Below, piece after piece: positions 1 through 30,606 of a stretch of DNA of 35,177 bases. This DNA is from a virus (taxonomy: Duplodnaviria > Heunggongvirae > Uroviricota > Caudoviricetes). The position numbers and the translations under genes are program-made. Positions within the stretch are counted from its first letter, which is position 1. The number at the start of each line of letters is the position of its first letter. Under the pieces are notes generated by a model that was given only the letters and a program-made list of their open reading frames with translations, did not search any database and had not been told where the DNA came from. The stretch is taken from IMG/VR virus record IMGVR_UViG_2690316321_000006. One strand, 5' to 3'.

Positions 1-516
1 ATGAAATTTAAAAAATGTCTTCTGCCTGTGGCAATGTTAGCGTCATTCACTCTGGCAGGATGCCAGTCAAATGCTGATGATCATGCCGCCGATGTTTATC
101 AAACCGATCAACTGAATACCAAACAAGAAACTAAAACCGTTAATATTATTTCCATTCTTCCCGCAAAAGTTGCCGTAGACAACGCCCAAAATAAACGGAA
201 CGCACAAGCCTTCGGCGCGCTTATTGGCGCTGTCGCTGGCGGTGTTATCGGCCACAACGTCGGGTCTGGCAGCAATTCCGGAACGACGGCAGGTGCAGTT
301 GGCGGCGGAGCTGTTGGCGCAGCAGCGGGTTCTATGGTGAATGATAAAACCTTAGTGGAAGGTGTTTCTTTAACATATAAGGAAGGCACCAAAGTGTATA
401 CCTCCACCCAGGTGGGTAAAGAGTGCCAGTTTACGACAGGTTTAGCCGTTGTTATTACCACGACGTATAACGAAACGCGTATTCAGCCAAATACCAAATG
501 TCCTGAAAAGAGCTAA
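1..516 (+). CDS. Outer-membrane lipoprotein with glycine-zipper segment (YcfJ / 17-kDa-antigen-like)
   Basis: ATG at 1; signal peptide with lipobox LAGC; Gly/Ala-rich zipper (GALIGAVAGGVIGHNVG); ordinary GC; probably host flank, possibly a moron. Confidence 0.6.
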   Translation: MKFKKCLLPVAMLASFTLAGCQSNADDHAADVYQTDQLNTKQETKTVNIISILPAKVAVDNAQNKRNAQAFGALIGAVAGGVIGHNVGSGSNSGTTAGAVGGGAVGAAAGSMVNDKTLVEGVSLTYKEGTKVYTSTQVGKECQFTTGLAVVITTTYNETRIQPNTKCPEKS

Positions 517-531
517 TAATCAGGAGGAGTC

Positions 532-1071
532 ATGAAGAAAGTTTTTCTTTGCGCCATCTTAGCCTCCTTAAGCTATCCGGCTATCGCCTCATCATTGCAG
601 GATCAACTCTCGGCTGTCGCAGAAGCGGAACAGCAAGGTAAAAATGAAGAGCAAAGGCAGCATGACGAATGGGTCGCGGAGCGCAACAGGGAAATCCAGC
701 AAGAGAAGCAACGTCGCGCAAATGCCCAGGCCGCCGCTAACAAAAGAGCGGCAACGGCAGCAGCAAATAAGAAAGCTCGTCAGGATAAACTAGACGCCGA
801 AGCCACTGCGGACAAAAAACGCGATCAAAGTTATGAAGATGAGCTACGCAGCTTAGAGATTCAGAAACAAAAACTGGCGCTGGCGAAAGAAGAAGCCCGC
901 GTTAAGCGAGAAAACGAATTTATCGATCAGGAACTGAAGCACAAAGCTGCGCAAACCGATGTGGTGCAATCTGAAGCTGACGCAAACAGAAATATGACTG
1001 AAGGCGGTCGCGATCTGATGAAAAGCGTGGGTAAAGCAGAAGAGAACAAATCGGACAGCTGGTTTAACTAA
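532..1071 (+). CDS. Secreted charged coiled-coil protein of unknown function
   Basis: ATG at 532 preceded by AGGAGG at 522-527; N-terminal signal peptide (AIASS); K/E/Q/A-rich body; followed by a rho-independent terminator. Confidence 0.55.
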   Translation: MKKVFLCAILASLSYPAIASSLQDQLSAVAEAEQQGKNEEQRQHDEWVAERNREIQQEKQRRANAQAAANKRAATAAANKKARQDKLDAEATADKKRDQSYEDELRSLEIQKQKLALAKEEARVKRENEFIDQELKHKAAQTDVVQSEADANRNMTEGGRDLMKSVGKAEENKSDSWFN

Positions 1072-2011: not shown

Positions 2012-2992
2012 TTACTCTGAATCGTCGTCGGCAAGGCGGTACTTTTTGAAGCGAATAACCTCCAGCCCCAGCCAGTCGTTCAGTTCTTTAAAGCGTTCCT
2101 GCAGCGGCTCGATCTCATTGCAGTTGAATACCTTCGCCGCTTTGATAGCGTCGCCGAAGCCACCGGCGTTACTCGGTACCACGCCCATGAGCGCGGGCGG
2201 TACCCGGTGCGCGGCTAACTGGTCGTCACGGCTGACGCTCTTGATATCGGAGAAGTTATCTTTCGCCGCCACCTCGCCAATCGGGATCACCTTTACGCTG
2301 TCCGGTTTGCCGTTCGGCAGATACATCAGCAGATTGCGGAAGTTGCCGGGGCCACGGCTGTTCGCCAGCGCCTCCTGTAACGCCCCAATATCCGCCTCGT
2401 TATGGGCAGGGTCGCTCAGGTAGAGGATGAAACCGGCATGACTGCCGTTCTTGTAGTAGCGACGGCGAAACAGCGTGGCGGAGTTATCCAGCCATGCCGC
2501 GTTCAGCGCAGAGAGGTATTCAGGCAGGCCGTAGATTTCCTGATTGATATCCGGCTCCAGCAGGTGGCCGATACTGCCCGACGCAAACTCATGATCCACT
2601 TTACCGGGCTGAACAAAGAAATAGCTGTCCAGCGCCTTGCCGCGCCGGACATACTTCGCCAGCGCAGGCACCAGCGTTAACGGCTGGCCCAGCCGGTTAT
2701 CCTGCCGCTCCAGATAGGCATTACCGAACACCAGATAGTCCAGCGCAAGGCGGCTGAACGCCTGCCGGGTCAACAACGGATGAGGTATGAAGGTACCAAC
2801 CAGCACATTGCGCTTCACGCAGATCGGGCTGGTATGATGCGCCGAAGCGCGGAACGACAGCGCCAGCGAATTAAAATCCACCGGCGGCGCATACCATTTG
2901 CCAAAGTCTACGCACTCCAGATAGTTCAGTATTTCCCGCCTGTCCAGCAGGGCTTCGGGTTCACCGAAGGTGAAAGCCATTGCGTTATTCAT
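2012..2992 (-). CDS. Q: Portal protein (P2 gpQ-like)
   Basis: 326-aa ORF, ATG at 2992; position and orientation upstream of the terminase ATPase as in P2; stop/start overlap (ATGA) with P. Confidence 0.85.
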   Translation of the reverse strand: MNNAMAFTFGEPEALLDRREILNYLECVDFGKWYAPPVDFNSLALSFRASAHHTSPICVKRNVLVGTFIPHPLLTRQAFSRLALDYLVFGNAYLERQDNRLGQPLTLVPALAKYVRRGKALDSYFFVQPGKVDHEFASGSIGHLLEPDINQEIYGLPEYLSALNAAWLDNSATLFRRRYYKNGSHAGFILYLSDPAHNEADIGALQEALANSRGPGNFRNLLMYLPNGKPDSVKVIPIGEVAAKDNFSDIKSVSRDDQLAAHRVPPALMGVVPSNAGGFGDAIKAAKVFNCNEIEPLQERFKELNDWLGLEVIRFKKYRLADDDSE

Positions 2993-4773
2993 CCATACAC
3001 CTTAATTAAGCCCCGCCCGCTGTTCGCGCCGCCAGAGCTTTCCAGTGGTTCATTGATAATGGCGTGCATGCACGCCCATGCCAGATCCGCGTGGGAGACT
3101 TCTTCCGAACGGCTGGCCTCGAAGGTCACCTGACGCCCGGACGGGGTCAGGGTTTTGCGGATCGCCATAAATGCCTGCGCCAGATCCGTCCATCCAGCGT
3201 CAAACTCCAGTCGGTGTTTACGGACAACGTCCAGCGTTTTCAGCACCAGACGCTGTTTCACTTCCGGGGAATAAGAGAATGCCTGCACTGCCGGGAAGAA
3301 CTGTTTCACCAGTTGATGCACGCCGTGGCCGATACCGGTCACGTCAATGCCGATGTACGTCACGTTATAGCGCTCGGTAATTTTGCGGATATTCTCCGCC
3401 TGCGCCGCGAAGTCCATCCCGTGCCACTGGTGCTTTTCAATTACCCGAAACTTGCCGCCCTCAATGACCGGCGGCGCGACCACCACGCATCCGGCGCTGT
3501 CGCCGCTTAACGCCGGATCGTAGCCCACCCATACCGAGCGTTCGCCGAGCGGACGCAGGGCAAACGGCTTGTAGTCGTCCCAGACTTCCCAGCTATCGAC
3601 CATGCAACCCTGCAACATGCTGAGCGGGAATACCGATGCGGTATCGTCAATAAACTGGCACATAAACAGGTTGGCGAACTCTTCCGGCGAGTTCTCCAGC
3701 CTGAGTTGCTCAAGGTCGAACAGGTCATAACCCTGATTGATGGCATCCTCAACGGTGACGATTTGCCGCCACTGGCCGTCTTCACACAACCGCCCTGCCG
3801 ACAGCGCCCGATGGCTGATATCCAGTCGAATCTGTTCGCTCTTCGGCCTGCCCTTGTTGAACAGTTGCCCTGTCCAGAACTTATAGGCTTCATGGGTGAT
3901 GCTGGACGGCGTGGAGAAGTAGGTTTGCCGCCAGCGCTTCTGGCTGGCCATCCCCGCCGCGTTACGGCGCAGTTCCAGAAAGCGGTGTATCCAGAAGTAT
4001 TCATCCAGATACAGGTTGCCATGATAGGTCTGGGCGGTGCGGGCATTAGTGCCGAGAAAATACATCCGGCTATCATTATGCGGCAGGTGAATGACTTCGC
4101 CTTTCAGCTCAACATCCGCCTCACGAGCAAAATCGACAATGTACTGGCGGAACTGGTGCGCCTGCGCTTTGGAAGCAGAGAGAAAGATCTGGTTGCGCCC
4201 ACTTTCCACCGCATCCATAAACCCTTCCCGCCCAAAGAACATCGTCGCCCCAATCTGGCGCGACTTGTTGATATCGCGGATACGGTGTTCCAGTCCGGCG
4301 CGGTACCAGTGTTTCTGGTGCGGATACAGCCCGTCCAGAAATAGCTGTTTCAGCTTCTCCGCCTGCTCCTCGCTGATATGGTTGGTTTCCGGCTGTCTGC
4401 GCGGCCCGGCGTTACGCTTCGCAAGAGCAGGATTCAGGTCGACCTCATTGCCTCCCTGCTGATAGCGTTCAACCCTTGCCCCGCGCTCCATCTGCCGCCA
4501 GAGCAAATCGATCTCCTTAAAATCCTTCCCCTCTTTATTTTCCTTCACCGTGAGCTGGATCAGACGCGCCTCGGTCACCGCCGTCACCCGCTCCAGCGGG
4601 GCGGATTCATCCCAGCCGTCGCGCCGCTTCCAGCTATGCAGCGTGGTAACTTTCACCCCCAACAGTTCGGCGATCCGCGCGATGCGAAAACCCTGCCAGT
4701 ACAGATAGCGGGCTTTGCGGCGTGGATCTTCATCCTGAAGGGCAAGCAGATGTTTTTCGATGTCTGGCGGCAT
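2989..4773 (-). CDS. P: Terminase large (ATPase) subunit (P2 gpP-like)
   Basis: 594-aa ORF, ATG at 4773; N-terminus MPPDIEKHLLALQ... typical of P2-family terminase ATPase; divergent from O. Confidence 0.9.
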   Translation of the reverse strand: MPPDIEKHLLALQDEDPRRKARYLYWQGFRIARIAELLGVKVTTLHSWKRRDGWDESAPLERVTAVTEARLIQLTVKENKEGKDFKEIDLLWRQMERGARVERYQQGGNEVDLNPALAKRNAGPRRQPETNHISEEQAEKLKQLFLDGLYPHQKHWYRAGLEHRIRDINKSRQIGATMFFGREGFMDAVESGRNQIFLSASKAQAHQFRQYIVDFAREADVELKGEVIHLPHNDSRMYFLGTNARTAQTYHGNLYLDEYFWIHRFLELRRNAAGMASQKRWRQTYFSTPSSITHEAYKFWTGQLFNKGRPKSEQIRLDISHRALSAGRLCEDGQWRQIVTVEDAINQGYDLFDLEQLRLENSPEEFANLFMCQFIDDTASVFPLSMLQGCMVDSWEVWDDYKPFALRPLGERSVWVGYDPALSGDSAGCVVVAPPVIEGGKFRVIEKHQWHGMDFAAQAENIRKITERYNVTYIGIDVTGIGHGVHQLVKQFFPAVQAFSYSPEVKQRLVLKTLDVVRKHRLEFDAGWTDLAQAFMAIRKTLTPSGRQVTFEASRSEEVSHADLAWACMHAIINEPLESSGGANSGRGLIKVYG

Positions 4774-4830: not shown

Positions 4831-4863
4831 CCGCTTGTAACCCGGATGATTACAAGCGAAGCC
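4831..4863. promoter_or_regulatory. Late-promoter activator site (Ogr-type dyad) in the divergent P/O control region
   Basis: CCGCTTGTA-N-TTACAAGCGAAGCC; TGT at 4836-4838 and ACA at 4852-4854 separated by 13 nt; centred about 55 nt from plausible start sites on both sides. Confidence 0.55.
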
Positions 4864-7521: not shown

Positions 7522-7989
7522 ATGAGCTTTATTCAGGTTGCCCCCGCCGCCAGTCTGCCGGGGCTGGTTATCAGCAACCACCCTTTCTTTCCCGATATTG
7601 ATACGCAACATCTGCGTGCGACCCAACGGCTGGACAGCACCGTCACCAACGAACGGCTGCGCGAGGCGCTGCTGATTGCGCTGGCCAGCGTAAACGACGA
7701 CCTGCGGGAATGGCGGCTGGAACAGGAAAACCGTGGCACAACTTGCATTGCGGAAACCACGACCGAACGACTGGACGGCGCAAGCGTTAACCTGCACCGC
7801 TACCGCCACGCGGTGTACAGCCTGACGCACGCAAACCTGCTGGAACGCTACCGTAACTTTGATGCCACCGCCCACGGCAGCAAACTGGTGGAACAAAAGG
7901 AAAGCACCGCCGACGATCTGGCGCGCGATGCCCGCTTCGCAGTGCGGGATATTCTGGGCAAGCCGCGTAGCACGTTTGTTCTGGTATAA
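7522..7989 (+). CDS. L: Head completion/stabilisation protein (P2 gpL-like)
   Basis: ATG at 7522 preceded by GGGAGA; the track ORF from 7390 begins at TTG and overlaps M, so the shorter ATG start is preferred. Confidence 0.8.
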   Translation: MSFIQVAPAASLPGLVISNHPFFPDIDTQHLRATQRLDSTVTNERLREALLIALASVNDDLREWRLEQENRGTTCIAETTTERLDGASVNLHRYRHAVYSLTHANLLERYRNFDATAHGSKLVEQKESTADDLARDARFAVRDILGKPRSTFVLV

Positions 7990-8104
7990 AAAGAGTACGG
8001 ATATGCGATGCGCATCACCGTATCGCCTCATCTGAACGCTGGATGCCCCTTCCCCACCAGAGTTAGTGTCTGACCCAACGAAAGAACTTACAGGGGAAAA
8101 TACC

Positions 8105-8341
8105 ATGACTATTCAGGCAGCCAGAACCCGCCCAATGACCGATACCGCTCGCCGCATCAGAGATACCATAGTTAGCGTCGGCGTTCGCAGCACATGGCCG
8201 CTGCGCGATCTGGCCGACTACGCAGATATAGAAATAGTTAACGCTGAATTTATTGTGACACAGATGGAACTGGCCGGTTATCTGAAGAAAACCCACTGGG
8301 GCCACTATATGTTAACCAGAGCGGGTATTGAGGCGGCATAA
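8105..8341 (+). CDS. Small putative winged-helix regulator (PapI/FaeA-like), accessory
   Basis: ATG at 8105 with AGGGGA upstream (track start 8066 is GTG without RBS); C-terminal ELAGYLKKTHWGHYMLT resembles the PapI/FaeA recognition-helix region; not in the P2 L-X interval. Confidence 0.4.
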   Translation: MTIQAARTRPMTDTARRIRDTIVSVGVRSTWPLRDLADYADIEIVNAEFIVTQMELAGYLKKTHWGHYMLTRAGIEAA

Positions 8342-8377
8342 TGAGTTTGAAGGTAGTGTTTGCCTGATAGCCATAAT

Positions 8378-8400
8378 AGCCCGATTCGTCGGGCTGTTTT
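8378..8400. terminator. Bidirectional hairpin terminator between convergent accessory genes
   Basis: agcccga-ttcg-tcgggct followed by gtttt; separates 8105-8341 (+) from 8431-9084 (-). Confidence 0.55.
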
Positions 8401-8430
8401 CATTTGACGCTGACTTACTCTATTCTACAT

Positions 8431-9084
8431 TTAGTCAAGAGCCGACCAATACTCAGACTCTAACCAAGAGCACAGCATTTCAACATTTCTGATAGCTTCG
8501 AATATTTTCTCTTTAGTCGGGGATATTGTAGGTGGGAATAACCACGATTTTTCTTCCTGTTCGGAAGCCAAAAGTAGCTCACACTCCTGAATAAAGTATG
8601 GGCGAGGATATTTTTCCAAGTCATTTTTTGAGTGAGAAATATTAATTGAGGTAAGTTCCTCAGGATGCTGGACACGATTTCTCACCAAGGGAATTTGTTC
8701 AATTATTTCCAAATTTGCAGGACATTTTGCCATTTCCAACTCAATTTTGTTGAAAATTTCACGATAGCCATTAAACCAACCCTTCTTGAAATTTATATCA
8801 GATTTCACGCTATGATATCCTAAGCGATCTACCCACGCCTTCAGGTACAACTGAAGAGAAGACGAAAGCATCGATAATGCATGGTGCCCACAGGTTTCTA
8901 ATCCCGACTTTGCATCTAACCATTCATCTAAAAAAGCTGGTTCATCACTCTCACCATACGGCTGAATATAAGGTTCCACTTCATTCTCAATATCATTCAT
9001 GATGTTAACAAATGGTGCAGCAGCCGTTTCATAGAAATAAGTAACGAATCTTGTGCGCTCTTTAAGAAAAAATTCAATATCCAC
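8431..9084 (-). CDS. Hypothetical 217-aa accessory protein with R-x4-H motif (possible HEPN-like toxin or effector)
   Basis: AT-rich; the track start at 9102 is TTG, the preferred start is GTG at 9084 directly after AGGAGG; contains LVRNRVQHPEEL (R-x4-H); lies downstream of an RHH gene on the same strand. Confidence 0.5.
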   Translation of the reverse strand: MDIEFFLKERTRFVTYFYETAAAPFVNIMNDIENEVEPYIQPYGESDEPAFLDEWLDAKSGLETCGHHALSMLSSSLQLYLKAWVDRLGYHSVKSDINFKKGWFNGYREIFNKIELEMAKCPANLEIIEQIPLVRNRVQHPEELTSINISHSKNDLEKYPRPYFIQECELLLASEQEEKSWLFPPTISPTKEKIFEAIRNVEMLCSWLESEYWSALD

Positions 9085-9185
9085 AACACCTCCTACACAC
9101 AATGTTTAAGTTAATCAGTGCATATCGACTAATCTGGGCTGAACAAATAATCCTAACTTCTTAGCGCTGCTTGATATCTCCGTAA

Positions 9186-9356
9186 TTATCCTTTGGGTTC
9201 AATACCTCGTGACTGAAGTTCCTTACGCAAAACGCGTTTTATCCATGTTGCGAGAGAGGTATCTCCATCTTTACGAGCCTGTTCTTCAAGCTGCTTTCTA
9301 AATTCATGAGCAAGACGAAGTTGGTACTGATCTGTTTTAGCCTTTTCACTTGACAT
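9186..9356 (-). CDS. Ribbon-helix-helix (Arc/CopG-like) DNA-binding protein; putative antitoxin or autoregulator (56 aa, absent from the ORF track)
   Basis: Minus-strand ATG at 9356 to TAA at 9186; translation MSSEKAKTDQYQLRLAHEFRKQLEEQARKDGDTSLATWIKRVLRKELQSRGIEPKG has the beta-strand then two-helix RHH pattern; palindromic GTAATTAC operators overlap its start. Confidence 0.55.
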   Translation of the reverse strand: MSSEKAKTDQYQLRLAHEFRKQLEEQARKDGDTSLATWIKRVLRKELQSRGIEPKG

Positions 9357-9408
9357 TGTAATTACAAAATCCTTAGAATGATGTAGTTGTAATTACATCG
9401 CAATTACG
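9357..9408. promoter_or_regulatory. Operator/promoter region with repeated palindrome TGTAATTACA
   Basis: TGTAATTACA at 9357-9366 and 9388-9397 (31 bp apart) plus a degenerate copy GCAATTACG at 9400-9408; sits between divergent RHH gene and the 9498 ORF. Confidence 0.5.
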
Positions 9409-9497
9409 TGATGTTTTGCAACCCTTAAACGAACGAAGCCCGCAGGTGCTACCAACACCAACGGGCCTCTGACCACAACATTAAAGAGGCTAATGCT

Positions 9498-9704
9498 ATG
9501 GCTACCGCTAATAGTAACATACGCGCACATTCAAAGCTCTACACCTTCCTGAACGCCCGTTCCAACCGCCTGCTGCGCGAGATCCAGCCCCTGCGTCTGG
9601 TGTCTGTACTGGCAACAACTGAAATCGAGGCTCGCGACCTGCTGGCGGGTTTCCCGCTGGTGTTCGTCTCCTGCAAACCGCTGGAGGTGCGCCATGGTGC
9701 CTGA
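9498..9704 (+). CDS. Small protein resembling Icd-like (host cell division inhibitor-like) proteins of P4-type elements
   Basis: ATG at 9498 with AAGAGG 8 nt upstream; 68 aa; motif pattern recalled from P4-like island small ORFs; weak. Confidence 0.4.
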   Translation: MATANSNIRAHSKLYTFLNARSNRLLREIQPLRLVSVLATTEIEARDLLAGFPLVFVSCKPLEVRHGA

Positions 9705-10014
9705 AACCAATATTCTGTCCTCTGAACTGGCGGACGCGATCCGCAAGATGGATATTTCACACCTGAACGCCGACGATACTCTGCTACTGGCCAACAGCAG
9801 CGAAGAGTGCTACGCCGGACTATGTCACGGCCTGCATTTTCTGGGTAAAACCTTCGTCTCCTTTGCCGACAGCAACGTGCTGGAATTCTCCGCTGAAAGC
9901 CTGTGCCAGCTAGGGCATGGCCTGTCGGCTACCGCGCTTCTGCTTCCGGCGCTGATCCAGCTCCAGAAGTCCGCTGAACTGAAAATCATCAATACCGACA
10001 GCGACGAGGCATAG
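9694..10014 (+). CDS. Hypothetical protein (106 aa), accessory
   Basis: ATG at 9694 with GGAGG 6 nt upstream; overlaps the end of the previous ORF (coupled). Confidence 0.45.
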   Translation: MVPETNILSSELADAIRKMDISHLNADDTLLLANSSEECYAGLCHGLHFLGKTFVSFADSNVLEFSAESLCQLGHGLSATALLLPALIQLQKSAELKIINTDSDEA

Positions 10015-10030
10015 CCCTCGCCAATCGCTT

Positions 10031-10064
10031 CCGCTTGTACTGCCCTCAGTTACAAGCGGAAGCC
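10031..10064 (+). promoter_or_regulatory. Late-promoter activator site (Ogr-type dyad) upstream of X
   Basis: CCGCTTGTA-N-TTACAAGCGGAAGCC; TGT 10036-10038, ACA 10052-10054, 13-nt spacer; near-identical flanks to the P/O, V and FI sites. Confidence 0.55.
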
Positions 10065-10128
10065 TTCCCTTCACTTCCCGCCCCTGTGCCACCATCCCCG
10101 CATCACCTGACGCCGCGCGGGAAACACC

Positions 10129-10332
10129 ATGATTGTCTATAGCCTGCAAAACGAAACGCTCGATCAGCTCTGCTGGCGCATCTTCGGGCGCACTGCCGGG
10201 ATTGTCGAACAGCTTTACCAGAACAACCCGCGCCTGTGCGAACTGCCGCTGCGCCTGCCACACGGTACGGCGGTTAACGTACCGGAACAGGCTCCCGCCA
10301 CCGCACGTCAACGAATCAACCTGTGGGACTGA
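10129..10332 (+). CDS. X: Tail protein X (P2 gpX-like)
   Basis: 67 aa, same size as P2 X; ...LPHGTAVNVPEQAPATARQRINLWD closely matches the recalled P2 X C-terminus. Confidence 0.85.
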   Translation: MIVYSLQNETLDQLCWRIFGRTAGIVEQLYQNNPRLCELPLRLPHGTAVNVPEQAPATARQRINLWD

Positions 10333-12591: not shown

Positions 12592-13037
12592 TGAGCGACG
12601 ACCTGCAACAACTCCACCGCTGGGCCGATGGCCTGCTCGCAAAGCTCTCCCCGGCAAGCCGAACCCAACTGGCACGGGAAATCGCCCGCAGCCTGCGCCA
12701 GTCGCAAAGCCAGCGAATAACCGCGCAGAAAAACCCGGACGGCTCACCGTTCGCCCCCCGTAAGCTCCAGCTACGCAGTAAAAAAGGAAAGATCCGCCGC
12801 CAGATGTTCCGTAAGCTGCGTACCGCACGCTATATGAAAGGGAAAGGCGATGGGCAGGGAGCAACCATTTCGTTTCTCAGCAGCGTTCGACATATGGCTG
12901 CCGTTCATCAGTATGGCCTGCGCGATCGGGTAAATCGCTACGGGTTGGAGGTGGATTACGCACAAAGGCAGTTGCTGGGGTTTTCGGCGGAGGATGTGCG
13001 AAAAATAGAGGCGCTAATCGTTCACTTCCTGACTTGA
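12591..13037 (+). CDS. S: Tail completion / virion morphogenesis protein (P2 gpS-like)
   Basis: 148 aa; one-nucleotide TGATG overlap with R. Confidence 0.8.
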   Translation: MSDDLQQLHRWADGLLAKLSPASRTQLAREIARSLRQSQSQRITAQKNPDGSPFAPRKLQLRSKKGKIRRQMFRKLRTARYMKGKGDGQGATISFLSSVRHMAAVHQYGLRDRVNRYGLEVDYAQRQLLGFSAEDVRKIEALIVHFLT

Positions 13038-13062
13038 AATGATATCAAAAAATGATATCATC
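13038..13062 (+). promoter_or_regulatory. Putative hicAB operator: two TGATATCA palindromes
   Basis: TGATATCA at 13040-13047 and 13053-13060 in an AT-rich stretch 50 bp upstream of hicA. Confidence 0.5.
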
Positions 13063-13109
13063 ATTATATCTTGGCGGAAGAATAAAATAACTTATGGAAA
13101 ATACCCTGT

Positions 13110-13373
13110 ATGAATACGTTAAGCGCCAAACATAAAAAAACCTTACAAGCTGTTTTTTCTACGCCAACACCTGTCACGCTGGAATGGCGAAAAATAGAAG
13201 CCTTATTTATTGCTTTGGGGGCTATTGCTACGGAAGGAAACGGTTCCCGCGTCAGGTTTGAAATTAATCAGGTTGTGGCTTCATTTCATCGTCCACACCC
13301 GGAAAAAGAAGCGAAAGCCTATCAGGTTCGCGATGCCAGAACATTCCTTGAAGCTGTAGGGGTAACACCATGA
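13110..13373 (+). CDS. hicA: HicA-family mRNA-interferase toxin
   Basis: 87 aa; conserved ...RFEINQVVASFHRPHPEKE... region typical of HicA; followed by overlapping HicB. Confidence 0.7.
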   Translation: MNTLSAKHKKTLQAVFSTPTPVTLEWRKIEALFIALGAIATEGNGSRVRFEINQVVASFHRPHPEKEAKAYQVRDARTFLEAVGVTP

Positions 13374-13705
13374 TGAATACCATGACATATAGAGGCTATG
13401 CCGCAAAAATTGAATACAGCGATGAAGATCAATGCATTGTTGGTCACGTTGCAGGCATTCGGGATGTCATTGGCTTTCATGCCGATAATGTTGCCGATCT
13501 GCGTAAAGCGTTTGAAGAGGCGGTAGACGACTATCTGGCTTACTGCGAGGAACGGGGCCGGGAGCCGTTGCGTCCGGCCAGCGGAAAAATCAGCCTGCGT
13601 ATTCCACCTGAAATTCACTCTGCCATTAACGTTGCGGCAGAAGTCTCCGGTAAAAGCGTTAACCAGTGGATTAACGATACACTGATGAAGGCTGCGCACG
13701 GTTAA
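13370..13705 (+). CDS. hicB: HicB-family antitoxin
   Basis: 111 aa; ATGA overlap with hicA; HicB-like N-terminal domain plus C-terminal RHH-like segment (ISLRIPPEIHSAINVAAEVSGKSVNQWINDTL). Confidence 0.75.
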   Translation: MMNTMTYRGYAAKIEYSDEDQCIVGHVAGIRDVIGFHADNVADLRKAFEEAVDDYLAYCEERGREPLRPASGKISLRIPPEIHSAINVAAEVSGKSVNQWINDTLMKAAHG

Positions 13706-13720
13706 GCTCTTTTTCGTTCA

Positions 13721-13744
13721 ACGCCCCTACTCAGGGGCGTTTTA
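13721..13744 (+). terminator. Rho-independent terminator after hicB
   Basis: acgcccct-actc-aggggcgt followed by ttta. Confidence 0.6.
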
Positions 13745-13775
13745 CTTGTAGCCCATTATCCTACAAGCCTTAGCC
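13742..13775 (+). promoter_or_regulatory. Late-promoter activator site (Ogr-type dyad) upstream of V
   Basis: TTACTTGTA-N-CTACAAGCCTTAGCC; TGT 13747-13749, ACA 13763-13765, 13-nt spacer. Confidence 0.55.
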
Positions 13776-13811
13776 CTTCCCTCTTCGCCCGCGAATCCCA
13801 ATGATTCCGGC

Positions 13812-14411
13812 ATGAGCGACGCAAACCACCCAGCCAACCTCGCCGAGCTGCACCGGCGCATTGAAAACCTGATCCGTACCGGCACCGTTGAAGAGGTGAA
13901 GGGCGATCGAGTACGCATTCACACTGGTGAACTGACCACCAACTGGATACCGTGGCTGACGCTGCGCGCCGGTGATGCCCGGACGTGGTGGCGACCATCA
14001 ACAGGCGAACAGGTGTTACTGCTCTGTTTAAGCGGTGAGTTAACCACCGCCGTGGCGCTTCCTGCCATTTACTCTGACGCCAACCCCGCCCCGCTGCTGG
14101 ATGAACAGGTTCACCATAGCGTTTACCCCGATGGTGCGGTGATTGAATATGATCCGCGCTCCAGCGCGTTAAAAGCCACCGGCATCAAGACCGCACTGGT
14201 CGAAGCCAGCACCCGCGTCACGCTGGATACACCGCTCGTCGTCTGCACCCAGCATCTGGAAACCGCCACGCTGTCGGTTAAAAAAGGCGGCACGCTTAAA
14301 GGCACTTACACCCACAGCAGCGGCAGTTTTACCTCCAACGGCGTCACCGTCCATACCCACACGCACACAGGCGTAGAGCGCGGCGGTAGCAATACCGGAG
14401 GGCCGCAGTAA
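13812..14411 (+). CDS. V: Baseplate spike / assembly protein V (P2 gpV-like)
   Basis: 199 aa; first gene after the late dyad; P2 order. Confidence 0.85.
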   Translation: MSDANHPANLAELHRRIENLIRTGTVEEVKGDRVRIHTGELTTNWIPWLTLRAGDARTWWRPSTGEQVLLLCLSGELTTAVALPAIYSDANPAPLLDEQVHHSVYPDGAVIEYDPRSSALKATGIKTALVEASTRVTLDTPLVVCTQHLETATLSVKKGGTLKGTYTHSSGSFTSNGVTVHTHTHTGVERGGSNTGGPQ

Positions 14412-25573: not shown

Positions 25574-26676
25574 CGATGTTAAACGCACTCTTAAACGCCC
25601 AGCCGCAACCGGAGTACAGCGTGGTGCTGAACGGTAAGGACATTACGCGGAATCTGGACAACCGCTTAATCAGCCTGCGTATCACCGACAACCGGGGCTT
25701 TGAGGCCGACGAACTGCAGCTCGAACTGGACGACAGCGACGGCCTGCTGGCGTTTCCGGCAAAGGGCGAAAAGCTAACGGTTTCTCTGGGCTGGAAGGGT
25801 GACGGCGTGATGCACCAGAATGTCTTCACAGTGGACGAACTGGAGCACAGCGGCGCACCGGACGTACTCAGCCTCCGCGCCCGCAGCGCCGATTTCCGCG
25901 ATTCGCTGAACGTTAAACGGGAACAGAGCTACCATGATGTGACGCTGGGCGCGATTGTGCAAACCGTGGCGGCACGTCATAAGCTGGAATCAACCGTCAG
26001 CGGCGAGCTGGCTGGGATCGCCATTGAGCACGTTGACCAGACTAACGAGTCTGATGCGTCCTTCCTAACCCGGCTGGCGCAAATGCACGGCGCTATCGCC
26101 TGCGTGAAAAATGATGCTCTGCTGCTGATGCCGACAGGTTCCGGTAAAAGCGCCAGCGGCAAGCCGCTGCCGGTCGCAACCATTAACCGCGAGGACGGCG
26201 ACAGCCACCGGTTCAGCATCGCGGACAGGGAAGCCTATACCGGCGTAACGGCCTACTGGCTGGATACGCGGCAGGCTAAAAAGCAGTCAACTGACGTGAA
26301 GCGCAAGACACGGAAAAACCTTCCGCAAACGCAACCAACAGAATCGCCGACGTCAGACACCTCATTCAACGCCGATAACGTGATGGTCGGCGAAGAGGGA
26401 AATATCAAGGTGCTGCGCCACACCTATGCCAACAAAAATAACGCCTACAGAGCGGCAGAAAGCGCGTGGGAGCTATTACAGCGAGGCGCGGCAACGTTCA
26501 GCCTGAATCTTGCGCGTGGACGGCCCGATTTGTTCCCGGAATTGCCGGTGCCGGTGCAGGTGAAGGGGTTTAAGGCTGAGATTGATGGCACCGCGTGGGT
26601 GATTACGCGGTGCGTGCATACGTTGGATGGCGGTACTGGTTATGTCACCGCATTAGAAATGGAATTAAGTTTATAG
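25570..26676 (+). CDS. D: Tail protein D (P2 gpD-like)
   Basis: 368 aa; ATGA overlap with U; last late gene as in P2. Confidence 0.85.
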   Translation: MTMLNALLNAQPQPEYSVVLNGKDITRNLDNRLISLRITDNRGFEADELQLELDDSDGLLAFPAKGEKLTVSLGWKGDGVMHQNVFTVDELEHSGAPDVLSLRARSADFRDSLNVKREQSYHDVTLGAIVQTVAARHKLESTVSGELAGIAIEHVDQTNESDASFLTRLAQMHGAIACVKNDALLLMPTGSGKSASGKPLPVATINREDGDSHRFSIADREAYTGVTAYWLDTRQAKKQSTDVKRKTRKNLPQTQPTESPTSDTSFNADNVMVGEEGNIKVLRHTYANKNNAYRAAESAWELLQRGAATFSLNLARGRPDLFPELPVPVQVKGFKAEIDGTAWVITRCVHTLDGGTGYVTALEMELSL

Positions 26677-27927
26677 TAATCCTAAATGAACCATAATAGC
26701 CATTAAGATCATTCCACCACCTAAGGCTGTCGGAATCCAGCATAAGCATTGAAAGAAAAGAAGGTAACGATTTAACATGACCTGATTTTTGTCTAAATTA
26801 TCCTTTGCATTGCATACTAATTTTTTCAAATCTTCTGTATAACCTACAGATTTTTTCACTAATGGGGAAAATATAATATCTTTAGCATCACAAATCATCC
26901 TAAACTGTGTGTATTGACTTCTTACAATAAAAAACATAATTATCGACGTGAGCAATACACCTAAAAAAACCACTAACATTTCCGGCAGGGTATTTAATTT
27001 TATCATGCCAAAAGTAGCAACCAAAGAAACAGGAATACCTAAAAGCTTAGCTATCATGTCTGACATTATTTTTGAAAAACGCTCAGCTAAATTAGCTTCT
27101 GCCTCTGCCACTTCCTTTCTTACTTTATGAAATGAAAAACCACTAAGATATACACCGAGGTTATTATGGTATAGTTTTAGAAATTCATCCCACTCACAGA
27201 ATAAAAAATGAAACTGTTTCTTTACATCGATTGATTCAAGAAAATCGACCACCGTATTAATGAAAATCCCTTTTCGCTCAAAATAATTATCATCCGTTAT
27301 AGCTTTTTTTTCATCAGAAAAAGATTCGATGATTTTTAAATCCTTAATACCTGTTAAAAGAAGTGAATAATCAACATTAGTTTCAATAATTAAAGGTAAT
27401 GACTTAGCATTAGTATTTTTCAAGAAAACTAACTTATGGCATACATCATCACTTTTACTATTGCTGTAGTGTGCAACTTTTGATAGACATAAAATAAAAT
27501 CACAAAGATTCTTTAAAACAGATAGTTCTGGTATTTTTGCTAATCCCTCAACCATTCCTTCATTAAAATAAAAATCTTCCTCAACCAAGTAAAAAGACTT
27601 TCTTAAAATACCTCTATTTAACATCGGAGACTTTTGAATTAGATCTTTAATATCGATAAAAAATGACTCACTGGCTCCAGTTGATATAGAGATTGTCAGT
27701 GTTATTGATGTTCCTTTAGCGGGAAGGCTATCATCAACATCTATATCCACATCATCAATGACAATCTCTTCAATTTCTCCCCACGCGGTATGAGGTTGCA
27801 AAGAAACTAAGAGTTCATATATATGAGCATCATAAGAAATAGTTGCTGAAAAACGATTATTAATAGCATCAAATTTAGGACGCCCTACATATCTGAAAAG
27901 CTCAACAACCGTTTCAAAACATGACAT
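26671..27927 (-). CDS. Accessory protein with large soluble N-terminal domain and 2-3 C-terminal transmembrane helices (candidate membrane effector); third gene of AT-rich operon
   Basis: Preferred ATG at 27927 (track start 27936 is TTG); strongly AT-rich; hydrophobic segments LVVFLGVLLTSIIMFFIV and LLFFQCLCWIPTALGGGMILMAIMVHLGLL at the C-terminus; its stop overlaps the D stop convergently by 6 bp. Confidence 0.6.
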   Translation of the reverse strand: MSCFETVVELFRYVGRPKFDAINNRFSATISYDAHIYELLVSLQPHTAWGEIEEIVIDDVDIDVDDSLPAKGTSITLTISISTGASESFFIDIKDLIQKSPMLNRGILRKSFYLVEEDFYFNEGMVEGLAKIPELSVLKNLCDFILCLSKVAHYSNSKSDDVCHKLVFLKNTNAKSLPLIIETNVDYSLLLTGIKDLKIIESFSDEKKAITDDNYFERKGIFINTVVDFLESIDVKKQFHFLFCEWDEFLKLYHNNLGVYLSGFSFHKVRKEVAEAEANLAERFSKIMSDMIAKLLGIPVSLVATFGMIKLNTLPEMLVVFLGVLLTSIIMFFIVRSQYTQFRMICDAKDIIFSPLVKKSVGYTEDLKKLVCNAKDNLDKNQVMLNRYLLFFQCLCWIPTALGGGMILMAIMVHLGLL

Positions 27928-27985
27928 ATTAAGCAACCTTATTTTTCGCTATTTCTTTCTTTTATTAACTCATCAAGCAATTGAG

Positions 27986-29086
27986 CTATTTCACTTTTTT
28001 CTCAGGAGTAATCCGAGTAAAAGTTAAATGTCCAGTTTTCTTATTATAGCATATCTCATTATCAAGAGTATTGCCTAGTAAACTAGATTTAAACTCAAAA
28101 TTAACATTATCACTTGTATATTTAATATTTCTGTTTTTCTTAACTACTGATTTGCTTACCCTAAATTCCACAGGCACACGAATACTTTCACTATTCAAAT
28201 GAGCATATAATTCTTCTGACAATTTATCTTTAATGTCATCTTCTAAATTAACCATATGCTTCGCTGCCATCTCACTAACAACAGAAAGCTTAGCTGAAAT
28301 GTTATTCTCAGAACAATCGAATAAATACTCAATAATTTCATTTTTAAATTTACGGGCATTATCCTTTAATTCTTGATGATTTCTGAAGAAGTTAAAAGAT
28401 TCATTAATTAAATTACTCGTAGCTTTAGTTGATGTATTACCTTTATCACAACCTAAGGCAGTAATGAAATACCCTGAAGTTGTCTGGTTAGAACTGGGAC
28501 TAACAAAACTTAAATAATTAACATCCTGTCTTTCATTCTCATCAGCGGAAATATATTTATCATACAAATCATAGTTTATTCGTGCCGCCTGATTTAGTTT
28601 TGCCAGATCAAGATGCTCTAACTCCTTTGGTTCTAATTTATCACTAATAACTATACCTTCCTTTTGCTTAATCATTGCAATAAGAAAGTAACGCACGGAT
28701 TTACTGATATAATCAGCAAAAAGAAGTAATCCTCCTGATGCAGCAGGTCGATCCTTTGCCTCAATATATAACTGATGCATAACATTTTTTGATAATCCTA
28801 TAAACAATTCATCGTCTAACTTCTTGGATGTATCATTCCGATATTTATCAAATGCCGCTGGAAAAGGCCCCCTACGTGTTTCATCTAAATTAAATATACC
28901 ATAATGCGAGCTATTAGATTTTTTACCATACAATGCGGCTATACTGGACACTAGTTTAATTACGATTTCATTATTTCGGTCAAGAACCGTATCACGGCGA
29001 CTATATGGTTTTGAGTGATCGAAATCTTTATGTTGCTCTTTTATCAACCTATGAACAACCACGCACCCTAATGAAATATCAGACAT
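27986..29086 (-). CDS. NdpA/YejK-like nucleoid-associated-protein-family member (accessory); second gene of AT-rich operon
   Basis: 366 aa; collinear similarity to E. coli YejK as recalled from memory (MSDISLGCVVVHRLIKEQ vs MSLDINQIALHQLIKRDEQ; ASGGLLLFADY vs ADGGFVLFCHY; YLSFV vs YLTFL); RBS TGAGG upstream. Confidence 0.65.
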   Translation of the reverse strand: MSDISLGCVVVHRLIKEQHKDFDHSKPYSRRDTVLDRNNEIVIKLVSSIAALYGKKSNSSHYGIFNLDETRRGPFPAAFDKYRNDTSKKLDDELFIGLSKNVMHQLYIEAKDRPAASGGLLLFADYISKSVRYFLIAMIKQKEGIVISDKLEPKELEHLDLAKLNQAARINYDLYDKYISADENERQDVNYLSFVSPSSNQTTSGYFITALGCDKGNTSTKATSNLINESFNFFRNHQELKDNARKFKNEIIEYLFDCSENNISAKLSVVSEMAAKHMVNLEDDIKDKLSEELYAHLNSESIRVPVEFRVSKSVVKKNRNIKYTSDNVNFEFKSSLLGNTLDNEICYNKKTGHLTFTRITPEKKVK

Positions 29087-29100
29087 ATAACCTCACAATC

Positions 29101-29673
29101 CTATGGTAAATAAAAATCTTTCGCTTTATTTTCTAAATCAGTCCATCTACTGCTAATATTCTTTTCCTTACAAACAAGAAAAGCCTGATACCCTAAAAAC
29201 TCTTTCGTTTTCTTTAAATTATCTTCAGTAACATGACTCTTTTCTTCATTGTTGTTTTTCCATCCACAGAAATATATTCTGTCTGCTTCTTCAACATCCC
29301 TGACATGCACAGCAATATCAGTATATTTTGCCTTATTCTTAACAGTAACCGATGGAGGGATTTTCCCATCAAAATCTTCAAAAAACTTACTTGTTCTAAA
29401 TGGATTGGCAGGGTCATATTTCAAACCTAGAGCCTTGCATAATTCTTTATAAGTCTCACTTCCCAGATTAGGATTTATGACGAATCCCTTCTCGACTTTT
29501 AGACGAAAGCAAAGATTAGCGCCTAATGCTCCGAAAAGAAGCTCAAACGGTTTTCCATCAATAAAGAAAAATACATCAAAATGTAAATTATTGTGTCTGT
29601 ATGGGAATTTAACCCTATCCAATTTTTGCTCTGTCATGTTCCTGTAAAGAGCAACCAGATTATTCAACTTCAT
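29101..29673 (-). CDS. Hypothetical 190-aa protein; first gene of AT-rich accessory operon
   Basis: ATG at 29673 with GGAGG 5 nt upstream; AT-rich; no recognisable motif; 14-bp gap to the next gene. Confidence 0.55.
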   Translation of the reverse strand: MKLNNLVALYRNMTEQKLDRVKFPYRHNNLHFDVFFFIDGKPFELLFGALGANLCFRLKVEKGFVINPNLGSETYKELCKALGLKYDPANPFRTSKFFEDFDGKIPPSVTVKNKAKYTDIAVHVRDVEEADRIYFCGWKNNNEEKSHVTEDNLKKTKEFLGYQAFLVCKEKNISSRWTDLENKAKDFYLP

Positions 29674-30339: not shown

Positions 30340-30375
30340 TGTTTCAGTTAGTTAAAAGTGGTAAGGAGACAGGAC

Positions 30376-30606
30376 ATGATGAAATGCCCACACTGCGACG
30401 GTAAGGCGATAATTCGCAGCAGCGAATATATGTCACCGCTGGTACGTAAGCTCTATTACCAGTGCAAAAACGTTAACTGTTCGTTTTCATTTATCGCAAT
30501 GGAAACCGTGATGGGAACGGTGGTACCGAGCGGTTGCCCGAATCCTAAGATACACATACCGCTATCCACACGCGGGCAATTTCTGCAAAAACAGAAAATC
30601 GCGTAA
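30376..30606 (+). CDS. ogr: Ogr/Delta-family zinc-finger late-gene transcription activator
   Basis: ATG at 30376 with AAGGAG 7 nt upstream; MMKCPHCDGKA...YYQCKNVNCSFSF matches the Ogr C-x2-C...C-x4-C finger (P2 Ogr: HCPLCQH...YHQCQNVNCSATF). Confidence 0.85.
   Translation: MMKCPHCDGKAIIRSSEYMSPLVRKLYYQCKNVNCSFSFIAMETVMGTVVPSGCPNPKIHIPLSTRGQFLQKQKIA

Follow-up and report, generated by a model that had tools for sequence, protein, structure and literature searches.

How a phage can carry cargo inside a late operon and still express the genes beyond it is the question raised by IMG/VR virus record IMGVR_UViG_2690316321_000006 (Duplodnaviria; Heunggongvirae; Uroviricota; Caudoviricetes), a stretch of 35,177 nucleotides that was analyzed at its full length and is called the window here. 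The window has the layout of a P2-like prophage, with P on the minus strand (2989-4773) and then O, N, M, L, X, two holins, an endolysin, spanins, R/S, baseplate and tail genes. Directly after the stop codon of the head-completion gene L (7522-7989, plus strand; PF05926, E 2.5e-45), the last gene of the O-N-M-L late unit, begins an accessory island of 2,031 bp (7990-10020), whose right anchor is the tail gene X (10129-10332, plus strand; PF05489, E 2.3e-17), the first gene of the X-lysis-R-S unit. As a preliminary description made from the sequence had stated, L and X are separated by five open reading frames (ORFs) of mixed orientation and an AT-rich core, with a GC content of 35-42% over ~8300-9450 against 55-62% to either side; its span of 8105-10064, however, has to be replaced by the bounds 7990-10020, which come from comparison with island-free relatives and leave the late-promoter dyad outside. 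The explanation considered here to be the probable one, with room for doubt, is that the usual O-to-S late operon has been split in this lineage into O-N-M-L and X-lysis-R-S, the two being divided by a short spacer with an added, fifth Ogr-type late promoter (PX); that this break would tolerate insertions, so that a mosaic island now sits between the L stop codon and the ancestral PX; and that part of the island would act as a two-layer genetic switch. Computation supplies the anatomy, the bounds of the insertion, the ancestry of PX, the variation in content, the structure and covariation of an RNA, the joint variation of operator and repressor sequences and a HEPN fold; transcripts, binding events and any toxic or defensive action are inferred.

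The putative late promoter before X and the insertion boundaries

The age of PX relative to the island can be read from relatives in which the island is missing. Scanning with the window L protein brought up two such IMG/VR relatives, L063 and L064 (L 87-88% identical in amino acid sequence, X 88%), in which the L stop codon is followed by a 110-bp spacer containing an identical dyad, TTGTACTGCCCTCAGTTACAA, and then by X; window positions 10021-10130 match L063 4970-5079, directly after the L stop, at 93.6%. Because the island-free relatives hold the identical dyad, PX is older than the island, which was inserted upstream of it; PX is ancestral to the lineage and lies outside the island. In the window PX occupies 10027-10093 on the plus strand and consists of a dyad, GCTTCCGCTTGTA-N11-TACAAGCGGAAGC, with perfect arms of 13 nt each (10027-10063), and a -10-like CACCAT at 10088-10093. 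Dyad variants are found in L060, L065 and L066, and L065 (L 81% identical) keeps the promoter despite its differently composed island. The late dyad that the preliminary description had noticed just before X is thus real, but the proposal that the island brought its own late promoter to restore X fails, since the identical dyad is already present in L063 and L064 and homology breaks at ~10020.

The PX dyad belongs to a set. The pattern TTGT-N13-ACAA occurs four times in the window against 0.59 expected (0 of 100 shuffles reach four), at 4835 (P/O), 10035 (X), 13746 (V) and 20057 (FI), and further downstream all four sites align, at constant spacing, to a common CCACCAT-like -10 lying ~42 nt after the dyad. 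An Ogr/Delta-family zinc-finger protein with a CX2CX22CX4C arrangement is encoded at 30358-30606 on the plus strand (PF04606, E 1.2e-19, 70.4 bits with a cutoff of 26.3) and is, judging from its family, the likely reader of the four dyads. For P2 itself, four Ogr-dependent late promoters with the consensus TGT-N12-ACA have been reported, with an O operon that runs through to S (PMC3931495). Comparison of the L-X interval across eight annotated reference Peduoviridae genera, supplemented by single-protein scans, shows L and X adjacent or overlapping in seven; in the remaining one, KS5, a single 80-aa ORF (gp37) that is unrelated to the first ORF of the island lies between them. TGT-N12/13-ACA is found upstream of O in seven of the eight references and within 160 nt upstream of X in none, so the X-proximal late promoter is a peculiarity of the lineage: where L and X lie close together, the dyad is present in the island-free relatives and missing from the references.

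The lineage is both divergent and, as it appears, rare. Among the L proteins of 425 GenBank phage records none exceeds 48% identity to that of the window, hence the divergence. A GenBank/INPHARED phage search with the region was without a match whether run in near, distant or tblastn mode, and the lineage is missing from that collection. Lineage relatives were found in 4 of 5,426 complete E. coli genomes, in further E. coli and Salmonella assemblies, in Serratia symbiotica and among IMG/VR contigs.

The left end of the island is formed by orf1 (8105-8341, plus strand, 78 aa) and a terminator. The orf1 product is 82-95% identical in lineage relatives and matches PHROG 331 (function unknown; E 1.3e-6), the sole other match being Mrr_N at E 0.092; its homologues fall into just 20 clusters, all annotated as hypothetical, and also edge other prophage and tailocin cargo regions in Enterobacter and Lelliottia. 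Since orf1 is co-oriented with L and lies ahead of the terminator, it is probably a passenger of the late operon. Its product is possibly a small winged-helix protein; the PapI/FaeA-like identity proposed for it earlier was not borne out, no such Pfam or NCBIfam match being found at E <=0.1 and no sequence match in the PDB. The intrinsic terminator (8375-8398, plus strand), at the convergent junction with the next ORF, has a 10-bp stem and a T-run, and its folding energy of -14.8 kcal/mol (z -3.4) was equalled by none of 200 shuffles; late transcription of O-N-M-L-orf1 would stop here. It had been described as bidirectional (8378-8400), of which the plus-strand half stands; on the minus strand the hairpin is followed only by UAUUAUGG, a poor U-tail, and no terminator was called. 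The segment that contains it, 8344-8414, forms a joint that recurs at convergent junctions of L002, L060, L066 and L070, elsewhere in their islands.

Put together, these features suggest a sequence of events in which the late transcript from PO would run through L and orf1 and stop at the terminator, after which the Ogr-like protein would activate PX and transcription would restart for X and the genes that follow. Because PX would restart transcription from X onward, the island is proposed to cost the phage nothing. As to how the insertion came about, a likeness between the orf1 leader and the X leader was tried as a trace of duplication and rejected, as its local score of 18 compares with a shuffle mean of 15 +/- 2.2 and was reached by 73 of 500 shuffles (alignment A8); direct repeats are absent from the island flanks save for one chance 9-mer, and for these two reasons neither site-specific integration nor leader duplication is supported.

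Mosaic content and the HEPN-fold cargo gene

Genes orf1, the ribbon-helix-helix (RHH) gene, the Icd-like ORF and orf5 are shared by lineage relatives, as is PX; the same five island genes are not conserved throughout, since the interval between orf1 and the RHH gene varies. This slot holds a HEPN-fold gene in the window; a Doc/Fic (Doc/Phd) gene with a 62-aa partner in L001, L003 and L061; a 68-aa ORF, HigB/RelE, a helix-turn-helix gene (HigA) and a 177-aa ORF in L002; HigBA together with Doc/Phd in L066 and L070; a HigBA remnant in L060, from Salmonella; and an Rpn/YhgA nuclease gene (PF04754, E 1e-83), without orf1, in L065. L063 and L064 are empty. There are thus at least five different contents among the filled slots, and the cargo (Doc, HigB, Rpn/YhgA, HEPN fold) is of toxin-antitoxin (TA) or toxin type. 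The island is composite, as had been supposed, and its content differs among close relatives. BLAST comparison with L060 divides the island into consecutive segments: orf1 (7990-8343), the terminator joint (8344-8414), the HEPN cassette (8415-9183; absent from L060 although the RHH proteins are 98% identical), the RHH gene with its operators (9184-9426) and a block of RNA, Icd-like ORF and orf5 (9427-10020). The island is a mosaic of independently segregating parts. Even the RHH gene itself has been exchanged, as the window copy is nearer to copies from Pectobacterium, Brenneria and an Erwinia metagenome-assembled genome (84-86% identical) than to those of its sister phages (only 42-57%). Turnover of the cargo would proceed by recombination in conserved flanks, namely orf1 and the terminator joint on the left and a near-invariant RNA and leader on the right.

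The variable cassette of the window (~8415-9183, minus strand) consists of a solo gene (8431-9084) with a GTG start and an AGGAGG Shine-Dalgarno sequence, encoding a protein of 217 aa that the preliminary description had left as unknown. Its homologues form 188 clusters, every one of them labelled hypothetical and free of Pfam domains; they are spread across Gammaproteobacteria and Nitrospirota, and identity to the window protein reaches 78% in Marinobacter. A HEPN fold is predicted. In an alignment of 40 homologues R135, N136 and Q139 of the motif R135-N-R-V-Q-H140 (RNxxQH) are invariant and H140 is at least 90% conserved, so that the R-x4-H signature is present in the sequence, and the AlphaFold2 model, which is confident (pLDDT 87.8), places the predicted helices in the four-helix up-down arrangement of HEPN proteins. 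The window protein has no significant match to any HEPN family profile, and PF18735 (HEPN_RiboL-PSP) matches weakly in only 5 of the 40 homologues (best E 8.9e-4); the family profile found nothing among PDB sequences, and a BFVD fold search with the model was uninformative.

Homologues are found in defence-island contexts. One in Aeromonas has SIR2, SocA/Panacea, DpnII-like and Fic genes as neighbors, and a Pectobacterium homologue lies in an integrase-bounded island together with a Gabija-like pair of OLD-TOPRIM and UvrD genes. No neighbor is conserved, which makes the gene look like a solo unit. Going by fold and context, the 217-aa protein is predicted to be a HEPN RNase of toxin or abortive-infection type, and most likely would act as such an effector in protecting the lysogen. 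As a separate observation, the Pectobacterium carotovorum island (L007 6001-12663) holds, within one pair of bounds, the HEPN homologue, the Gabija-like pair and a copy of the RHH/antisense-RNA/leader module treated below (RNA at 8519-8593), with different small ORFs downstream; HEPN gene and switch therefore co-occur in a second, unrelated element.

The putative repressor and antisense-RNA module

To the right of the cargo slot lie the parts of the putative switch, beginning with the RHH gene (9186-9356, minus strand, 56 aa). Its one convincing match is the PHROG 228 Arc-like repressor family (E 3.5e-6); Pfam Arc (E 0.038, 14.3 bits) and NF041551 (YlcI_YnfO_N; E 0.0013, 18.8 bits) fall short of their cutoffs of 20.4 and 30, so that the earlier RHH assignment receives modest support. 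Every lineage relative has a homologue, as do most module-bearing loci. The AT-rich core would be expressed leftward and independently of late transcription, with the RHH gene first and the exchangeable cargo gene second. Facing the other way, toward the Icd-like ORF, is a strong sigma-70-type promoter (9350-9379, plus strand; TTGACA-18-TAGAAT, 11 of 12 matches), the -10 of which is bracketed by two TTGTAATTACA(A) palindromes, 31 bp apart, at 9356-9367 and 9387-9397. The palindrome is identical in all loci whose RHH protein is at least 84% identical to that of the window, and reads GGTAATTACC at 73%, GGTATATACC at 62-64% and GGTGTACACC at 41% identity. Palindrome and protein thus co-vary as operators and repressors do, and the palindromes are putative RHH operators; the protein would be expected to bind TGTAATTACA. 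By this evidence the RHH protein is a putative repressor of the divergent promoter, which it would control by binding both sites.

The second layer is a candidate cis-antisense RNA of SymR type (9428-9503, minus strand) with two hairpins and a U-rich tail, covering the Shine-Dalgarno sequence and the start codon of the Icd-like ORF (9498-9704, plus strand, 68 aa). The element folds at -39.2 kcal/mol (z -6.75) and is found by nhmmer in nearly all module loci. In hairpin 2, compensatory changes occur at 8 of 10 pairs among 24 sequences; none of 500 shuffles reaches the observed covariation, and it collapses in slid controls. Invariant G-U pairs and the U-rich tail after hairpin 2 favor the minus strand as the functional RNA. 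The RNA starts, with a 5' A, 3 nt beyond the Icd-like ATG and 7 nt downstream of a -10-like TACTAT (9511-9516), a geometry that is the same in symR/symE of E. coli K-12. A covariance model built without SymR finds K-12 symR from its annotated start at 1836 to 4 nt past its annotated end at 1912 (30.9 bits, E 9e-6), and also matches an E. coli satellite-like element and the Pectobacterium island that contains the HEPN homologue. Set side by side, K-12 symR (L015 1836-1912) and the window RNA match reciprocally and agree in where the 5' end falls, in -10 spacing and in a GUGUUGG loop, which suggests that symR is one member of a wider, mobile family of RNAs that is missed at Rfam's threshold.

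The Icd-like ORF appears to serve as a leader. The name it had been given is borderline, with NF033153 at 24.1 bits for a cutoff of 25, and its clear match is to PHROG 20855 (function unknown; E 1.5e-45), with no Pfam match. Its stop codon is overlapped by 11 nt by the start of orf5 (9694-10014, plus strand, 106 aa), which suggests translational coupling of orf5 to the leader. In Pectobacterium-type loci the Icd-like ORF is missing and the orf5 homologue begins directly at the antisense-covered ATGGCT, making orf5 the constant regulated product. The predicted structure of the orf5 protein is a three-helix hairpin, for which a structure search returned generic helical-hairpin matches only, and no similarity to known antirepressors was found. 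The SymR-like RNA would block the ribosome-binding site and start codon of the leader, and orf5, coupled to it, would be kept silent doubly, by the RHH protein and by the antisense RNA. A literature search found nothing relevant on SymR with Icd or on YlcI/YnfO, and the combination of repressor and antisense RNA is apparently undescribed. The preliminary description had mentioned neither the sigma-70 promoter and the operators nor the antisense RNA, nor that four of the five genes are kept across the lineage.

Three side observations concern these parts in other genomes. In L001 (E. coli 24A16CRGN010) two annotated 58-aa ORFs (3395-3571 and 3564-3740) occupy the place of the single 68-aa Icd-like ORF of its relatives, and window-like Icd homology begins only at 3570, indicating that the 5' part, including RNA hairpin 2, has been replaced. 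Stretches of 45-60 nt from hairpin 2 (window 9433-9488) recur with 88-93% identity in ~20 further E. coli chromosomes, for the most part within DNA that has no annotation; one such match lies beneath a long CDS annotated as Icd-like, whose annotated start probably overruns the RNA element. Three Photorhabdus loci (L039, L044, L058) contain the antisense element twice, next to a tailocin cluster; the copies (in L039 at 3464-3540 and 4681-4756), which have separate RHH genes, are ~1.2 kb from each other and enclose HigBA pairs, an arrangement that looks like tandem accretion of the module.

A scan of species-representative genomes found the module in 32 Enterobacterales loci, none with L, X or M nearby. 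It forms a bare three-gene chromosomal islet between cysC and a CMD-family gene in Leminorella, adjoins TacAT and a 1,315-aa ORF in Kosakonia, borders a tailocin cluster in Photorhabdus, where two HigBA pairs and Fic accompany it, and abuts an integrase in Pectobacterium; in E. coli A36, a satellite-like element that carries an integrase has, at the head of its primase operon, a YlcI/YnfO and Icd-like pair together with the same antisense element. A wider proposal, doubtful when all of its parts are taken together, would make the RHH protein, the SymR-like RNA and the leader a portable two-layer switch common to P4 and PICI (phage-inducible chromosomal island) satellites, chromosomal islets, tailocin flanks and this phage, with RNA and leader doubling as the homology anchor by which TA and defence cargo, the HEPN gene among it, would pass between mobile elements with no other relationship, symE/symR of the hsd-mcr region as a domesticated relative, and the HEPN family as a new single-gene anti-phage system.

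Alternative explanations and comparison with known systems

Several results weigh against the explanation by operon split, ancestral PX and two-layer switch. The dyad spacing is N13 rather than the published N12, N13 being seen as well in variants that precede O in RSA1, KS5, BR319a and phiMhaA1; readthrough of the terminator, or transcription from the sigma-70 promoter through orf5, may supply X and the holins, and between orf5 and X a canonical terminator is absent, only the dyad hairpin being found (-25.1 kcal/mol, without a U-tract). For the switch, all Pfam and NCBIfam assignments of the RHH protein lie below curated cutoffs, its Shine-Dalgarno spacing is poor (~13 nt), and the Rfam SymR match (9503-9428; 34.9 bits, E 2.6e-4) does not reach the gathering score of 61, at which level Rfam finds nothing in the window.

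The alternative that survives best, still only a tentative possibility, is that the Icd-like ORF, orf5 and the antisense RNA constitute a type I TA or addiction cassette, the island then being a selfish pile of TA genes of no benefit to phage or host. Geometry and sequence like those of symE/symR, the persistence of the module by itself in the Leminorella chromosome and the TA type of all the neighboring cargo speak in its favor, as does the report that an Icd-like protein probably serves as the cell-death effector of a prophage system in ECOR61 (bioRxiv 10.1101/2023.04.06.535777). However, toxicity of orf5 is only supposed, its product being a predicted soluble helical hairpin without an informative structural match, and what the same switch controls in satellites is replication genes, not a toxin. 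It is unlikely, next, that the island is a decayed PICI- or P4-like satellite lodged in the late region of its helper that retains repressor/Icd-like control and cargo. Such embedding in prophage late genes is documented (PMC10111431), Icd-like proteins have been reported from most Enterobacter satellites, where YlcI/YnfO is also listed (PMC13612085), and both the A36 primase operon and the integrase beside the Pectobacterium module fit the idea. Yet neither an integrase nor a primase was found in or around the island, nor were att-like direct repeats or fragments of pseudogenes, and the standalone Leminorella islet and the copies beside Photorhabdus tailocins indicate that the module moves as a small cassette in its own right.

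A conventional type II TA pair, with RHH as antitoxin and autorepressor of HEPN and the two acquired as one cargo unit, must be regarded as decidedly unlikely. The two genes are on the same strand, with RHH first and ~100 nt between them, both in the AT-rich segment; no separate sigma-70 promoter was called for the HEPN gene, and in L007 the HEPN homologue is ~1.6 kb from the module. Against pairing, the Salmonella relative L060 has the nearly identical RHH protein and the same operators without the HEPN gene, RHH homologues precede complete Phd-Doc pairs in sister phages, HEPN homologues of Pseudomonas and Aeromonas have no RHH neighbor, and the RHH operators lie over the rightward promoter. 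Arrival of the island as a unit with its own dyad, restoring X after its terminator had broken the O operon, would account for a dyad immediately downstream of an island that contains a terminator, in a position where P2-type L and X overlap without a promoter between them, but is very improbable given the dyad of L063 and L064, the homology break upstream of it and the same promoter next to the different island of L065.

The operon-split explanation can be set against what is known of cargo sites in P2-like phages. Three hotspots have been named in P2, gpA-Q (old/tin), Z/fun and the interval from the tail genes to CI/int (bioRxiv 10.1101/2024.10.15.618418; PMC9122126), and L-X lies outside all three, as the preliminary description had surmised. 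A survey published in NAR in 2026 placed 16% of P2 defence systems 'downstream of GpL', a region it equated with the tail-gene hotspot (PMC13586616); as its core genes were only the Q-L operon, int and gpA, this wording leaves L-X unresolved. Three other intervals of the window hold cargo or candidates for it. The S-V interval (13037-13812), a second cargo slot, has a HicB-family antitoxin ORF (13370-13705, plus strand; PF05534, E 2.7e-18), presumably half of a HicAB pair; its counterparts hold AbiTii in L060 (9421-10326), a 151-aa ORF in L061 and minus-strand cargo in several references (Old in KS5, PIN in RSA1). Three co-oriented minus-strand genes (26671-29673) separate the tail gene D region from the Ogr-like gene; their products are a 421-aa protein to which Pfam has no match, an NA37/YejK-like nucleoid-associated protein of 366 aa (PF04245, E 5e-46) and a DUF6037 protein of 190 aa. 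Their position is that of the known tail-to-CI/int hotspot, and the three could form an uncharacterised defence system. At the left end (1-1071, plus strand) lie a fragment of a glycine-zipper/TraT-like lipoprotein gene (PF05433; TraT below cutoff) and a gene for a DUF5384 protein (E 4e-62), ~0.9-2 kb left of a minus-strand ORF (2012-2992) taken by its position as the portal gene Q; these are likely to be gpA-Q hotspot cargo.

These distinctions matter because phage and satellite hotspots are among the richest current sources of new anti-phage systems, and P2 surveys anchor on a few core genes and the three named hotspots. A further slot created by splitting an operon would supply a concrete rule for where cargo can lodge harmlessly. 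The switch, whose antisense RNA is supported by covariation, links phages, satellites and the symE/symR locus and offers one testable lead, and the uncharacterised, widely transferred HEPN-fold family offers another. According to a recent study, defence genes hardly ever pass between P2 phages and P4 satellites (PMC13586616), and a control module common to both would be a notable exception.

Compared with known systems, PX resembles the PP, PO, PV and PF promoters of P2 (TGT-N12-ACA centred near -55; PMC3931495) in that a dyad precedes each late unit, the -10 is weak, a -35 is missing and an Ogr/Delta protein is encoded by the phage itself; it differs, as predicted from sequence, in being an additional promoter before X that splits the O-to-S operon, and in having N13 spacing and extended arms of 9-13 nt. 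The candidate RNA resembles SymR of E. coli K-12 (Kawano et al. 2007, PMC1891008; RF01809) as a cis-antisense RNA of ~76 nt with its 5' end 3 nt past the target ATG, a promoter inside the target ORF, two hairpins, a GUGUUGG-type loop and a terminator tail, with the sense gene under a DNA-binding repressor and with reciprocal model matches. It is unlike SymE/SymR in its sub-threshold Rfam score, in its target (an Icd-like leader, not the AbrB-fold SymE), in its repressor (RHH, not LexA) and in its residence on mobile elements.

The immunity-I regions of P1 (c4 RNA-icd-ant) and P22 (mnt, Pant-arc-ant, sar RNA) offer a second parallel, as there too an antisense RNA gates a short icd-type ORF, a downstream gene is coupled, and a divergent RHH gene has operators over the promoter. 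Unlike these, the module lies outside the immunity region, and an Rfam scan of 8000-10200 gave no C4 match at E <=10. The predicted HEPN protein is like HEPN toxins and abortive-infection (Abi) proteins (MNT-HEPN pairs such as SO_3166; AbiD/F, AbiU2, AbiV; Pfam HEPN_RiboL-PSP) in its helical fold, its R-x4-H and its residence among defence-island and prophage cargo, and unlike them in having no MNT or other partner and in its 217 aa with extra helices; its RNase activity is only predicted, and PADLOC, which does not include the family, returned nothing for all five island proteins. The slot as a whole agrees with the P2 hotspots (Rousset et al. 2022, PMC9122126; bioRxiv 10.1101/2024.10.15.618418; PMC13586616) in being a fixed position at which phages that are almost identical exchange defence or TA genes, often AT-rich and not related to one another, with rapid turnover and no pseudogene trail. 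It departs from the named hotspots in its L-X position and in holding a conserved regulatory module besides the cargo. The L-X slot is accordingly a lineage-specific variant of known phage cargo hotspots and an incremental addition to them, and the antisense-RNA/repressor switch and the HEPN family are the parts of it most worth experiment.

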